This document shows positions 6,542-48,959 of a stretch of 64,000 nt of DNA, one piece after another. The stretch covers positions 860 through 64,859 of the forward strand of contig JBGQMY010000004.1 of the NCBI GenBank assembly GCA_041500865.1, given 5' to 3'. How positions within the stretch are numbered: the stretch's first letter is position 1; every line of letters begins with the position of its first letter. The position numbers and the translations under genes are program-made. A model generated the notes under the pieces. That model had not been told where the DNA came from and did no database searches. It saw nothing but the letters and a program-made list of their open reading frames with translations. This DNA is from Candidatus Micrarchaeia archaeon. GTDB taxonomy: Archaea; Micrarchaeota; Micrarchaeia; Anstonellales; J096.

Positions 6542-6728
6542 TGTCCCACACTTCCTTCATCTTTTTCATTTGCGCAATCTTGACAAACTGTTTGAGCGCG
6601 GTCTCTTCGGCATATTCGTTTGCCAGCCTCTGGATAACCTCCCTGTATGATTCCCTAGGATGCATTTTCAGAAGGTCCAGCTTTGCCTTAAGGTCTCTGT
6701 CGACCAGTATTGTCGTGTATTCTGTCAT
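6504..6728 (-). CDS. putative antitoxin (archaeal T.I.V..(D/E)..L..LK...ESY..VI..L family)
   Basis: Start set at MTEYTTILVDRDLKAKLDLLKMHPRESYREVIQRL. It overlaps the toxin by 38 nt. It has the same sequence pattern as the antitoxin at 50575-50757. Confidence 0.5.
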   Translation of the reverse strand: MTEYTTILVDRDLKAKLDLLKMHPRESYREVIQRLANEYAEETALKQFVKIAQMKKMKEVWDNEHDNNSAWQTI

Positions 6729-44117: not shown

Positions 44118-45542
44118 ATGATACAAGAGATATTTGAGTTCCTGGGAGGGCTTGCCAAATACCTTCCGGAAGTTGACGTGCCGAAGAGGCAGCTGACAGC
44201 AAAGGAGAAGCTTTTCTGGCTTGGGGCAGTAGTCGTGGTCTATTTCATACTATACCACCTGACAGTTTTTGGCCTGAGGACGGGCGGCGCAGGGACCGAC
44301 TTCATCCAGGTCGTTACAGCGTCAAAGACCGGAAGCTTCCTCACGCTCGGAATCGGCCCCATAGTCATGGCAAGCCTGTTCCTCCAGCTTTTCGTGGGAG
44401 CCGGGCTGCTCAATTTAAGTTTGCAGGACCCTGCGCAGAAGAGGAAATTCCACCAGATGCAGGTCGTCCTTGCCATAATAGTGGCAATACTTGAAGGTTA
44501 CGCATTCGGCACCAATTTGATAAACAACGGGATGTCAGACCCTGTCATGATAGGGAAGATGGGAGGGGCGGCTGCGGTTGGGGGCTTCCTGCTCCATCTG
44601 GTGGCGTTGCAGTTCGTGCTCGGCGCCGTATTCGTCATATACATGGACGAAATAGTGCAGAAATGGGGCATAGGCTCGGGCATCAGCATGTTCATAGCCG
44701 CAGGCGTCAGCGCCACAGTCGTCAACCAGGCAATCTCAATACTGTTTCTCGGCTCCAACAGCGTGCTTGCCAAGTTCGCCGAGGGCGGGGCTAACGCAAT
44801 AAGCCAGTCCATCGTGGCCATAATACCCATTTTCTCGACCATACTGATATTTTACCTTGCCATATACGGCTCGCTGCTGAAAGTCAAGATACCGATATCG
44901 TTTGCGGCGCTCAGGGCGTCCGGAAGGCCGCTGGAGCTGCCCCTTTTCTACGTTTCCAACATACCGGTCATATTCGCCGCCGCGCTGTTCATGAACGTGT
45001 CCTTTGTGCATACCGCCGTAATAGGCGCCATCACCCCTGACAACCAGGCCTGGATGGGCCCGCTTTCGGACGTTGTCTACATGCTGACGCCGTTCTACGT
45101 TGGCATAGACATGAACACCTATTTCAGCCAGCTCATGCAGCCCACGCAGTATCTCGGAATCCCGGGATGGGGCCATGCCCTTATATATGTGACGACACTT
45201 TCGATAGTCGCAGTTTTTTTCGGCCTGTTCTGGATAGAGATGGCGAAGATGGACGCAAAGAGCATAGCCGCCCAGCTCGGCCAGTATGGGGCCAACATAC
45301 CCGGCTTCAGGCAGGACAGGAGGTTCCTTGAGGAGAAGCTTAACGAGTATATCACGCCGCTCACGATAGCCGGCTCGTTTGCAGTAGGCTTGCTTGCGGG
45401 GATTGCGGACCTCACTGGCGCGCTGGGAACCGGAACCGGAATCCTGCTTACCGTGATGATACTTTACCAGTTCACAAGGCAGTCGTCTGAAGTCATACAG
45501 ACGTACTTCCCCAATTTCTCAAGAATCGTGCTGGGTGAATGA
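44118..45542 (+). CDS. secY: preprotein translocase SecY
   Basis: 474 aa with 10 TM helices. It follows rpl15 and is preceded by a GAGGTG SD. Confidence 0.95.
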   Translation: MIQEIFEFLGGLAKYLPEVDVPKRQLTAKEKLFWLGAVVVVYFILYHLTVFGLRTGGAGTDFIQVVTASKTGSFLTLGIGPIVMASLFLQLFVGAGLLNLSLQDPAQKRKFHQMQVVLAIIVAILEGYAFGTNLINNGMSDPVMIGKMGGAAAVGGFLLHLVALQFVLGAVFVIYMDEIVQKWGIGSGISMFIAAGVSATVVNQAISILFLGSNSVLAKFAEGGANAISQSIVAIIPIFSTILIFYLAIYGSLLKVKIPISFAALRASGRPLELPLFYVSNIPVIFAAALFMNVSFVHTAVIGAITPDNQAWMGPLSDVVYMLTPFYVGIDMNTYFSQLMQPTQYLGIPGWGHALIYVTTLSIVAVFFGLFWIEMAKMDAKSIAAQLGQYGANIPGFRQDRRFLEEKLNEYITPLTIAGSFAVGLLAGIADLTGALGTGTGILLTVMILYQFTRQSSEVIQTYFPNFSRIVLGE

Positions 45543-45545
45543 AAG

Positions 45546-46109
45546 ATGTATGTCATAATGGGGTTGCCTGGCGCAGGCAAGACAACGGTCATAACGAGCC
45601 TCAGGAAGCTCATGCCCAAGCTGAACGTAGTCAACTTTGGCGACGTAGCGCTTGAGGCCGGCAAGAGGCTCTATAAGATAGAGAGCAGGGACGAGATGAG
45701 GAAGAAGCTCAGCATTGAGCAGCAGCAGAAGCTCCAGGAAGAGGCCATAGCGGTCCTTTCCAGGATGACTGACCGCAATGTATTGCTTGACACGCATTGC
45801 GCGGTGAAGACGGCTACAGGCTACCTTCCGGGGCTGCCGTTCTGGATGCTCCAGAAGCTGAAGATAAATGGCTTCATACTGGTGTCCGCAAAGCCGGAGG
45901 AGATATTCAGCAGGAGGAAGAACGACCCTGCAAGGCCCGGACGCGATGCGGAAAGCCTGGACGAGATGAAGATGCACGACGCAATAAGCCGCGGCATGCT
46001 TGCGACGTATGCGGTGCTTGCCGGGGCGCCTGCCATGATAGTGGAGAACTCGGAAGGCAAGGTTGAGGATGCCGCGAAAAAGGTAGAATCGATGCTAAGA
46101 GGAAGATGA
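45546..46109 (+). CDS. adkA: adenylate kinase, archaeal type
   Basis: It has the P-loop MGLPGAGKTT, NFGDV, DTHCAVKT and GYLPGLP, and sits after secY. Confidence 0.9.
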   Translation: MYVIMGLPGAGKTTVITSLRKLMPKLNVVNFGDVALEAGKRLYKIESRDEMRKKLSIEQQQKLQEEAIAVLSRMTDRNVLLDTHCAVKTATGYLPGLPFWMLQKLKINGFILVSAKPEEIFSRRKNDPARPGRDAESLDEMKMHDAISRGMLATYAVLAGAPAMIVENSEGKVEDAAKKVESMLRGR

Positions 46110-46885
46110 TGGACTTCATCTATGCCATAGTTGCCTTTTCCTTTGTTTACCTAGTGCTGCTTAGGGCCGTGATGCTGAAGCTGGGCCTGAAGGAGTCAAA
46201 CAAGCTCAGGGAGCGGCTGAGCGCGCTTGACAAGCAGTTTTTTGAGGCGTCCAAGAAGGGCAACGCGAAGGAGATGGAAAAGCTCAACGCCGAGAAGATA
46301 CCCATCTCCATGCAGATCATGAACATGCAGCTGAAGATGATGCTGCCCATGCTGATACTCTTCTTTGTCATGGTGATGGTGCTGAATGCGATGAACCCGC
46401 AGACCGGCGACGACGTTTCCATAAAGAACGTTTCATCCGTCAACCAGACTTTCGCACTGTCCAACCCGTCCATGGAGGCGTTCAGGATAGCTGGCAAGGA
46501 CACGTCCAACACGTCCTTCACAGGCTACATATACATAAGCAAGGAAAGGGGCATCTACACCAACTTAACGCCTGGCTACACCATTTATCCCATAATAAAG
46601 GGCTCGGGCAACTACGACGTCTATCCAATTGAGCAGAACGGCGCAATATCCCTGAAAGCGGAAAACATTACGCAGTTTGACTCCGTGGAATTCGATTCAG
46701 GCACGGAATCCAGCGTTTTCGTCCCGCTTGACATAATAGGGATACGGTTTGTATACGGTGCGCAGGGCCTGTTCATCTTCTTTGGCTTCCTGCTTGGCAT
46801 AATCGAGCAGGTGTTCATGGGCAAGGCGCTCAACAACGCCATAGAGAAGGCGATGGAAAGGCTTGAAGGGAAGAAAAGCAATTGA
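46106..46885 (+). CDS. DUF106/EMC3-TMCO1-like membrane insertase homologue with a loop insertion of about 120 aa
   Basis: It has TM1, a coiled helix (KLRERLSALDKQFFEASKKGNAKEMEKLNAEK) and TM2, which is typical of archaeal DUF106 proteins after adk. A beta-rich insert with 5 N-x-S/T sequons then precedes the last TM. Confidence 0.7.
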   Translation: MMDFIYAIVAFSFVYLVLLRAVMLKLGLKESNKLRERLSALDKQFFEASKKGNAKEMEKLNAEKIPISMQIMNMQLKMMLPMLILFFVMVMVLNAMNPQTGDDVSIKNVSSVNQTFALSNPSMEAFRIAGKDTSNTSFTGYIYISKERGIYTNLTPGYTIYPIIKGSGNYDVYPIEQNGAISLKAENITQFDSVEFDSGTESSVFVPLDIIGIRFVYGAQGLFIFFGFLLGIIEQVFMGKALNNAIEKAMERLEGKKSN

Positions 46886-46893
46886 GTTTGGTT

Positions 46894-46951
46894 GCGGATC
46901 AGAGTCAAGTCATCTCATCATCAGTCAGGATTTCACCTCTCATCATCCCGC
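46894..46951 (-). ncRNA. box C/D sRNA (2'-O-methylation guide), 58 nt
   Basis: The minus strand reads GCGGG-ATGATGA(C)-GAGGTGAAATC-CTGA(D')-CTG-ATGATGA(C')-GATGACTTGACT-CTGA(D)-TCCGC. The guides are 11 and 12 nt, the terminal stem is GCGG/CCGC, and a TTTAAAAA box (46977-46984) lies about 26-33 nt upstream. Confidence 0.8.
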
Positions 46952-47042
46952 AATAATTGCCATATGCTGAGCCCTGTTTTTAAATTAAAGCCTGCTGCGC
47001 GGAAAACGCGCGCGGTTTCCCATTTTGGCTTTTTCTAAAACA

Positions 47043-47079
47043 TTTTTGAAAAATTTTTGCAAAAAGAATTTTTGAAAAT
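47043..47079. repeat. three phased TTTTTG(A/C)AAAA motifs, including the perfect palindrome TTTTTGCAAAAA (47054-47065)
   Basis: Read directly from the sequence. The motifs start at 47043, 47054 and 47069, in a divergent intergenic region. Confidence 0.6.
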
Positions 47080-47129
47080 CCGCAAATAACTTTTTAAACT
47101 TAACTCTTATAAAAAATAATTGCATAGAA

Positions 47130-47510
47130 ATGTTGGAAAGCAAGAAATTGGTTGTGGCGCCGGTTCCAGGAAGGAAATTATCGTCGTCAAAAACCCCCAA
47201 CTCGAAAATTCTGTGCAGCTTTTCGCTTTTCAAAAACCTATTGGAAAAAAATGGCGCGAAAAAGGCGATTGCTGAAAAAGGAAACATTTCCTCTATACAA
47301 AAAAGGATTCTTAGGCCCTCATACCTGAACTCTGACAGGAGAAAATTGGCCAGCGGCCATTTCATGCTTGCTTCTGAAACAAGGATGCGTAAATCCGAAT
47401 CTGTATCCGTAAACCCTAAGAAAAAGGAAGACGTAAACGTTTTTGTTGATTTTGACGATTTTGAAGAGCCAGAAGTTTACAGATGGAAAAGGCCATTATT
47501 GGACGACTAA
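47130..47510 (+). CDS. hypothetical protein (126 aa), weakly supported
   Basis: It is an AT-rich ORF behind TATA-like CTTATAAAAAA. No motif was recognised. The overlapping minus-strand ORF 46985-47365 looks less likely. Confidence 0.35.
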   Translation: MLESKKLVVAPVPGRKLSSSKTPNSKILCSFSLFKNLLEKNGAKKAIAEKGNISSIQKRILRPSYLNSDRRKLASGHFMLASETRMRKSESVSVNPKKKEDVNVFVDFDDFEEPEVYRWKRPLLDD

Positions 47511-48131: not shown

Positions 48132-48959
48132 CTATCCCTTTTTTACCCTCGCTATGAAGAACCCCTCGCTGTTGAGGTCTTTTGGGGATATTCTCCACGT
48201 TTTCCTGAATTCGTTGCCAAATTCAGCCAATCCGGAGCTGTGCGGCAGCTCAAGGCCGATGGTTTCAAGCTTCGCGTTTTCAAACTTCTCTAAAAGGTAC
48301 CTAATAACGCCCTCGTTTTCCTTATCCGTTATCGTGCATGTTGAATAAACAAGCGTTCCGCCTGGCTTCAGGGCCTTGAAAGCCGAAGAAATCATCTTTT
48401 TCTGCACGTCTGGCATGACTATGAGGCTTTTGCTGTTTATCCTTTCCCAGGCATAGGGATGGGAGCCCAGCGCCGTGCAGGGCGCATCCAACAGCACCTT
48501 GTTAAACATGTTTTCCATGCCAAGGTTTTTGCCGTCTAAGGATATGACTACGGAATTTAACGCGCCAAGCCTCGCTACATTGGACATTAAGGCATCAAGC
48601 CTTTCCTCCTGGTCGTTGGCAACTGCAGCCCCCCTATTCTCCATTAACATTGCAATTTCAGTGAATTTGCTTCCGGGGGATGCCGCAACGTCCAGTATAA
48701 TATCTTTTTCGCCAAAAGAACCAAAAACAAGCGGAACCACTGATGATGAAAGGCTCTGCGGATGGATCCATCCGCACTTGTAGTCCAGCGTCTTTCCGGG
48801 ATTGCCCTCAACGACGCTGAACATGAACGGAACTGGGGTCTTCTCAAGGACAAGGCCTGATTTTGCAAGATACTCGTTTATGGGCATCTTGAGCGTGTTT
48901 ACCCTTATGAAACTCTTCGCAGCCTTGAGCTGCGCGATGTATTCGTTGTCCTTTTCCAT
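48132..48959 (-). CDS. NOL1/NOP2/Sun-family RNA cytosine-C5 methyltransferase
   Basis: It has the SAM site ILDVAASPGSKFT and the catalytic Cys motifs VLLDAPCTALG and LVYSTCT. Confidence 0.85.
   Translation of the reverse strand: MEKDNEYIAQLKAAKSFIRVNTLKMPINEYLAKSGLVLEKTPVPFMFSVVEGNPGKTLDYKCGWIHPQSLSSSVVPLVFGSFGEKDIILDVAASPGSKFTEIAMLMENRGAAVANDQEERLDALMSNVARLGALNSVVISLDGKNLGMENMFNKVLLDAPCTALGSHPYAWERINSKSLIVMPDVQKKMISSAFKALKPGGTLVYSTCTITDKENEGVIRYLLEKFENAKLETIGLELPHSSGLAEFGNEFRKTWRISPKDLNSEGFFIARVKKG

Follow-up and report, generated by a model that had tools for sequence, protein, structure and literature searches.

Identification of a box C/D sRNA behind the SecY operon

The locus studied here raises the question of whether a short unannotated element, located on the minus strand directly behind a SecY operon, encodes a functional guide RNA and, if it does, which nucleotide this RNA would direct to modification. 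The element lies in a 64,000-nt stretch of DNA (hereafter the window) from a Micrarchaeota genome assembly of 1.04 Mb (36 contigs, 52% G+C, 92% complete), and the source runs containing the locus are all DNA runs, from sediment metagenomes. The SecY encoded in the window shares 86% identity with that of a 'Candidatus Micrarchaeia archaeon' MAG, which places the genome in the Micrarchaeota (DPANN). A preliminary description made from the window had proposed an unannotated archaeal box C/D sRNA, and we found this identification to be backed by the box architecture, a strong rRNA target, a promoter-like box, genes for the core proteins and conservation accompanied by covariation.

On the minus strand, positions 46951 to 46894 read GCGGG-ATGATGA-GAGGTGAAATC-CTGA-CTG-ATGATGA-GATGACTTGACT-CTGA-TCCGC, identical on re-reading to the motif first described in its boxes, guide lengths, loop and stem (Table 1). 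All four boxes are perfect, the guides measure 11 nt (D') and 12 nt (D), a loop of 3 nt separates D' from C', and the two ends form a terminal stem. Flanking UU/AA could extend this stem to 46892-46953, and the stem UUGCGG/CCGCAA closes in the minimum free energy fold. The energy of the fold is unremarkable (z = -1.48), a value that is uninformative since a guide RNA is mostly single-stranded.

The sRNA lies 8 nt past the stop codon (46885) of an EMC3/TMCO1-like membrane protein gene, the last of a three-gene run that also contains SecY and an Adk-like kinase. Because these plus-strand genes end 8 nt short of the minus-strand element, the sRNA is convergent with the SecY operon, and the gene coordinates thus bear out the arrangement claimed earlier. 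The TTTAAAAA box was likewise found where it had been reported, at 46977-46984 and 25 nt before the 5' G, and we infer from the sequence a promoter role for it. On the other side of the sRNA, the TTTT run located within the end of the convergent gene can tentatively be read as a possible archaeal terminator.

Table 1. Features of the sRNA locus and its neighbourhood, in positions of the window.
Feature	Positions	Strand	Basis or remark
Box C/D sRNA, 58 nt	46894-46951	minus	sequence, sub-threshold Rfam matches, fold, homologues
Terminal stem, 5' half, GCGGG	46947-46951	minus	pairs with TCCGC at 46894-46898
C box AUGAUGA (perfect RUGAUGA)	46940-46946	minus	sequence
D' guide GAGGUGAAAUC, 11 nt, orphan	46929-46939	minus	target scan at chance level
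D' box CUGA	46925-46928	minus	sequence
D'-C' loop CUG, 3 nt (K-loop)	46922-46924	minus	sequence
C' box AUGAUGA	46915-46921	minus	sequence
D guide GAUGACUUGACU, 12 nt, complementary to 16S E. coli 1405-1415	46903-46914	minus	pairing with own 16S
D box CUGA	46899-46902	minus	sequence
Terminal stem, 3' half, UCCGC	46894-46898	minus	sequence and fold
TATA-like box TTTAAAAA	46977-46984	minus	sequence; 25 nt 5' of the first G of the sRNA
TTTT run within the end of the convergent gene	46874-46877	minus	sequence; 17-20 nt beyond the 3' end of the sRNA
SecY gene	44118-45542	plus	first of three-gene run
Adk-like kinase gene	45546-46109	plus	second of three-gene run
EMC3/TMCO1-like membrane protein gene	46106-46885	plus	Pfam; last of the SecY-Adk run, synteny anchor

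Upstream of the putative promoter, an A/T-rich divergent spacer (46985-47130) separates it from a plus-strand open reading frame at 47130, and contains T-run/A-run palindromes as well as a GC hairpin that reads GCGCG-UUUUC-CGCGC on the minus strand. A minus-strand open reading frame of 126 aa (46985-47365) crosses this low-complexity spacer and is probably spurious. Further upstream, at 1.2 kb and on the same strand as the sRNA, lies a gene for an RNA m5C methyltransferase of the RsmB/F family (48132-48959, minus). We considered a functional link between this gene and the sRNA and rejected it; the RsmB/F-like gene does not adjoin the sRNA in relatives, and we accordingly treat the neighbourhood as a coincidence.

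The Rfam search named in the preliminary description gave a divided answer. No Rfam family reaches its gathering score at the locus, while about 20 archaeal C/D models align with it end to end below threshold, at 20-30 bits; the best of these is sR5, with 30.1 bits (E 5e-5) against a gathering threshold of 40. The sRNA belongs to no curated Rfam family, its likeness to the models is confined to the boxes and its guides are unrelated, and annotation at Rfam gathering thresholds misses it. The arrangement of the boxes goes beyond chance: a scan of the 1.04 Mb genome for a strict C/D'/C'/D pattern gave 5 occurrences, versus none in any of 10 shuffled genomes, and a looser pattern requiring complementarity to rRNA or tRNA yields 5 candidates versus 0 in the reversed genome.

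The D guide is complementary to the decoding centre of 16S rRNA

The target suggested for the D guide in the preliminary description was a stretch of 16S helix 34, at about position 1190. This did not hold, as the host 16S reads GACGGTAGGTCCGTATG there, the usual archaeal spelling, which mismatches the guide, and helix 34 was rejected as a target. A search for complements of both guides in 16S, 23S and tRNAs had been proposed as a check; such a complement exists for the D guide, in 16S at E. coli positions 1405-1415, and the D' guide finds matches at chance level.

We found that the D guide forms 11 contiguous Watson-Crick pairs with positions 1368-1378 of the 16S of its own genome. By alignment to E. 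coli rrsH, these correspond to E. coli 1405-1415, a part of the decoding centre located at the top of helix 44, and the nucleotide in the N+5 position of the guide is A1371, which is E. coli A1408. Guide position 1 is mismatched, with U opposite C1404. This is the only site in the host 16S with at most 3 mismatched or wobble positions to the guide; weak matches (9 Watson-Crick pairs of 12) occur in 23S and in one of 45 tRNAs, and none of 200 shuffled guides matches as well as the real one. The 16S (C12:22572-24065) and 23S (C7:32100-35276) genes lie on separate contigs of the host assembly and are unlinked as assembled.

Conservation and covariation of the guide with its target

Of the 401 genomes in our sample of the phylum, 34 yielded the C'-guide-D module in a combined BLAST and pattern search, and a reversed control yielded 0. 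Within the family of the host it is present in 14 of 16 genomes, in a second family (f6) in 13 of 30, and three other families contribute a few. The guide could be compared with its target in the 22 genomes (9 genera, 5 families) that contain both the sRNA and their own 16S. Each of the 22 guides aligns to 1404-1415, forming 9-11 pairs and placing A1408 at N+5, and a perfect D box together with the N+5 register onto A1408 is kept in every homologue.

Position 1414 is the only rRNA position that varies within the duplex, and it co-varies with guide position 11. Six genomes, from 2 genera belonging to different families, have U:A as the pair 1414:guide 11, and 10 genomes from 7 genera have C:G, a covariation that rests essentially on this one variable position in related genomes that are not independent of each other. 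In genus g5, which has G1414, and in one further genome (G008), guide position 11 is mismatched and guide position 1 is a G that pairs with C1404, so that 10 contiguous pairs are retained despite the mismatch.

Conservation extends in part to the surroundings of the module. The terminal stem of the relatives carries paired substitutions (GCGG/CCGC, GGCA/UGCC, AACCU/AGGUU) and is absent in some. The four copies from the host genus, and genus g4, have an A/T box at a distance of 22-26 nt upstream, and most other homologues have A/T-rich boxes in the same upstream region, with flanks that have otherwise diverged. The gene order SecY, Adk, EMC3-like and then the convergent sRNA is kept in 3 genera (g1, g3 and g6).

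Two of the genomes surveyed show peculiarities of their own. In genome G277 (C17:104660-104830), a 37-nt unit made of a GUGAUGA box, the A1408 guide, CUGA and a spacer is tandemly duplicated; judging from this arrangement, both halves of the RNA would bear the A1408 guide, and the spacer between D' and C' would be unusually long. In genome G186, a short contig (C110:893-2512) bears a further 16S fragment that differs in its helix-44 spelling (AGTCACCC versus AGTCATCC), and this fragment is probably a contamination of the bin.

A second guide without a clear target and a small C/D repertoire

The target predicted for the D' guide in the preliminary description, GAUUUCACCUC, has no counterpart better than chance in rRNA or in the 45 tRNAs. 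More precisely, the guide has no target with at most 2 mismatches in 16S, 23S or the 45 tRNAs, the RNAs scanned, intron-containing tRNAs included, and its best match is equalled by 70 of 200 shuffled guides. One candidate site, with 8 Watson-Crick and 2 G-U pairs and located 30 nt downstream of the 16S 3' end, was rejected, being at this same chance level and having no match in the D' guides of the same genus.

We asked of these data whether the D' guide nevertheless works as well, either on the 16S 3' terminus (UCACCUC, E. coli 1532-1538) or on another RNA, which would make the sRNA a dual guide like N. equitans sR13, an RNA that joins exactly these two target regions (PMC5389701). The guide keeps AGGUGA, within a 7-nt contiguous complement to the UCACCUC terminus that includes the N+5 position, and the homologues do better: the guide of sister genus g4, UGGAAGUGAUCU, forms 11 of 12 pairs with the 16S 3' terminus and that of G016 (genus g6) 10 of 12, with an N+5 nucleotide equivalent to C1533 or a neighbouring C. 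In the host, however, only 8 of 11 positions pair, the mismatches fall on positions 1, 3 and 4 near the target nucleotide, and shuffled guides match equally well at the rate given above. Moreover, three other copies from the same genus have a different 3' half of the D' guide (AACCU vs AAAUC) with no compensating change in the rRNA, and a second sRNA of the host already offers 9 contiguous pairs to the 16S 3' end (see below). A working D' guide thus appears unlikely to us, and the sequence comparison suggests that this guide is most likely redundant and decaying, a copy of one that was directed at the 16S 3' end.

This second sRNA, also perfect in its C/D motifs, lies outside the window on contig C1 of the host (6601-6649, minus). 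Its D guide, GUGACGUGCGGU, forms 10 of 12 pairs with 16S 1361-1372, where N+5 is the equivalent of E. coli C1402 and position 6 is mismatched; its D' guide, UCAAGGUGAUCU, provides the pairs to the 16S 3' end, with N+5 at the equivalent of C1533. Three further candidates, all on the minus strand and outside the window, were found at C24:8799-8848, C10:28027-28076 and C3:61086-61134. The first of them shows 11/12 and 10/12 complementarity to tRNA-Leu(CAA) and tRNA-Ser(CGA), the anticodon-loop region included. On the strength of these sequence searches, the whole C/D repertoire of the genome appears to comprise only about 5-7 genes.

Core proteins and a truncated Nop5

The host encodes the core proteins of a C/D RNP, namely fibrillarin (258 bits), Nop5 (151 bits) and L7Ae (85 bits), and fibrillarin is found in 41 of 41 relatives searched within the order. 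Nop5 is of reduced size. The host protein (297 aa, contig C1) contains only the Pfam Nop domain (residues 71-294) and matches the full-length archaeal aNOP56 model at just positions 124-375 of 417; as the match starts at 124, the canonical fibrillarin-binding N-terminal domain is missing, and residues 1-45 of the host protein are Gly/Arg-rich. The Nop5 proteins of the relatives measure 258-296 aa and begin directly at the conserved REKFxKKAR helix of the coiled-coil/Nop domain, from which it follows that the N-terminal domain is absent across the order and that the RGG tail is genus-specific. The open frames of genus g5 are ~233 aa long and match the Nop profile only from position about 84-91 onwards, and the protein may be shorter still.

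We found no separate gene for the Nop5 N-terminal domain and no Nop5-like gene adjoining fibrillarin. A search with PF08156 (NOP5NT) gave no match, which is uninformative since its archaeal controls gave none either. An additional weak match to NF011121 was considered as a split Nop5 and discarded as spurious, since it sits inside GyrA.

With a Nop5 that lacks the canonical fibrillarin-binding domain, the assembly of an active enzyme is not assured. We consider a different role, in which the RNA is a real C/D sRNA that mainly holds the 1405-1415 strand and acts as a folding chaperone or timer for the closure of helix 44 during 30S assembly, methylation being absent or secondary because the Nop5 of the order has lost its fibrillarin-binding domain. 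The order-wide truncation and the missing separate domain gene fit such a role, selection on pairing alone would give the same covariation, and a timing role has been proposed for the analogous N. equitans sR13 (PMC5389701).

The retention of fibrillarin in all relatives searched weighs against the loss of methylation, and a structural prediction points to another way of holding the enzyme. In the predicted complex, fibrillarin residues 90-131 contact residue 31 and residues 41-56 of Nop5 with a score of 0.69, versus 0.00 for the best of 3 controls; the score mark applied is reached by 58 of 80 solved complexes and by 2 of 110 mismatched pairs. At least 50% of contacts are common to the runs, and the pLDDT of the partner is at least 89. 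The prediction used alignments built from relatives, and its pass may stem from a resemblance to Nop5-fibrillarin complexes of solved structure. It supports, but does not show, that fibrillarin binds Nop5 via a short conserved helix (residues 41-56). With this reservation, the contact weighs against a purely structural RNA, as do the perfect D box and the exact register onto A1408 in every homologue and the methylation of the analogous site in N. equitans and I. hospitalis (PMC5389701). Taken together, we judge a role mainly as chaperone or timer to be improbable. The covariation of guide and rRNA is an indirect but independent sign that the guide system stays under selection despite a Nop5 that looks crippled.

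Proposed function of the sRNA

It is hardly credible that the locus yields no functional RNA and that the boxes are a chance arrangement between genes or belong to the 3' UTR of an adjacent gene. The failure to reach any Rfam gathering score and the ordinary fold energy would agree with chance, but shuffled and reversed genomes lack the pattern, no shuffled guide attains the 11-bp rRNA match, and the element is conserved in 5 families with covariation and with a positioned TATA-like box.

We conclude that positions 46894-46951 very probably encode an independently transcribed box C/D sRNA that guides 2'-O-methylation of 16S A1408. The motif architecture, the complementarity, the conservation with covariation and the protein genes are present in the genomes, and from them we infer transcription, RNP assembly and methylation as follows. 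The sRNA would be transcribed from its own promoter, giving an RNA of about 58-62 nt, in which boxes C/D would form a kink-turn and boxes C'/D' a K-loop; both would be bound by L7Ae, and Nop5 and fibrillarin would then be recruited. Ahead of the closure of helix 44, the D guide would pair with E. coli positions 1405-1415 of the nascent 16S rRNA, and the ribose of A1408 (own position 1371), lying opposite the fifth guide nucleotide upstream of box D, would enter the active site of fibrillarin and be 2'-O-methylated. The D' guide would have no recognisable target left, its task at the 16S 3' terminus being covered by the second sRNA on contig C1.

Beyond this, we tentatively put forward, as a possibility that may well prove wrong, a minimal micrarchaeal C/D RNP in which a Nop5 without N-terminal domain holds fibrillarin by one short conserved helix (about residues 41-56), with the A1408 guide among the handful of guides kept. 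If such a minimal RNP exists, the ribose methylation of A1408, or the hold of the guide on helix 44, would rank among the few C/D functions that a reduced archaeal genome cannot dispense with. The sRNA in any case provides a concrete substrate for testing how an RNP with a truncated Nop5 works, and adds a well-supported C/D guide RNA to the DPANN lineage Micrarchaeota; in the library of papers searched, none was found that names Micrarchaeota or DPANN together with a C/D sRNA.

Comparison with known systems

In box order, spacing and length the sRNA resembles, among others, the Rfam families sR5 (RF01304), sR1 (RF01152) and snoPyro_CD (RF00095), all of which stay below their gathering scores. 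Nucleotides of the decoding centre are also methylated in bacteria, by RsmI (Cm1402), RsmF (m5C1407) and NpmA (m1A1408), which target the same nucleotides; these are stand-alone enzymes that use no guide RNA, and NpmA modifies the base (N1) and not the ribose (general knowledge and PMC5053481).

The closest system is that of N. equitans. Using MALDI-MS and RiboMeth-seq, Seistrup et al. (2017) showed that its 16S rRNA carries Am1408 (and Am1409) at stoichiometric levels. They assigned Am1408 to sR13, an RNA that pairs with 1405-1415 through its 5' region and with 1531-1540 through its 3' region (PMC5389701). As in sR13, taken here from its published description, one guide of the micrarchaeal RNA is complementary to 16S 1405-1415 with 1408 at N+5, both hosts being DPANN archaea with small genomes, and the second guide of the sister genera pairs with the anti-Shine-Dalgarno region at the 16S 3' terminus (about 1531-1540). 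The second guide of the host RNA differs from this, with only 7 contiguous nt complementary to the 16S 3' end, at chance level. The two RNAs also differ in the placement of the guides: A1408 is addressed by the D guide here and by the 5' (D') guide in sR13, whose D guide targets A1534. Methylation is proven for sR13 and predicted for the micrarchaeal RNA. N. equitans furthermore lacks RsmA/Dim1, and a replacement of this enzyme by the guide, as proposed for N. equitans, is inapplicable to the micrarchaeal genome, which has RsmA/Dim1. An RsmF homologue of N. equitans is thought to make m5C1407, beside Am1408 (PMC5389701).

C/D guides to 16S nucleotide 1408 are also known in crenarchaea, where I. 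hospitalis sR56 guides Gm1408, a target found to be methylated (PMC5389701), and where Dennis et al. (2015) predicted methylation at the position of E. coli A1408 for S. acidocaldarius, as they did for N. equitans (PMC4644070). The second guide of sR56 goes to U1380, unlike that of the micrarchaeal RNA, and both crenarchaea are hyperthermophiles with 60-130 sRNAs, compared with the about 5-7 candidates of the micrarchaeal genome. The A1408 guide thus recurs in distant archaea, in Nanoarchaeota, in Crenarchaeota and now in Micrarchaeota. Sharing this target with sR13 and sR56, the micrarchaeal RNA is their functional counterpart and a guide RNA of known type; what is unusual is only the truncated Nop5 of its lineage.
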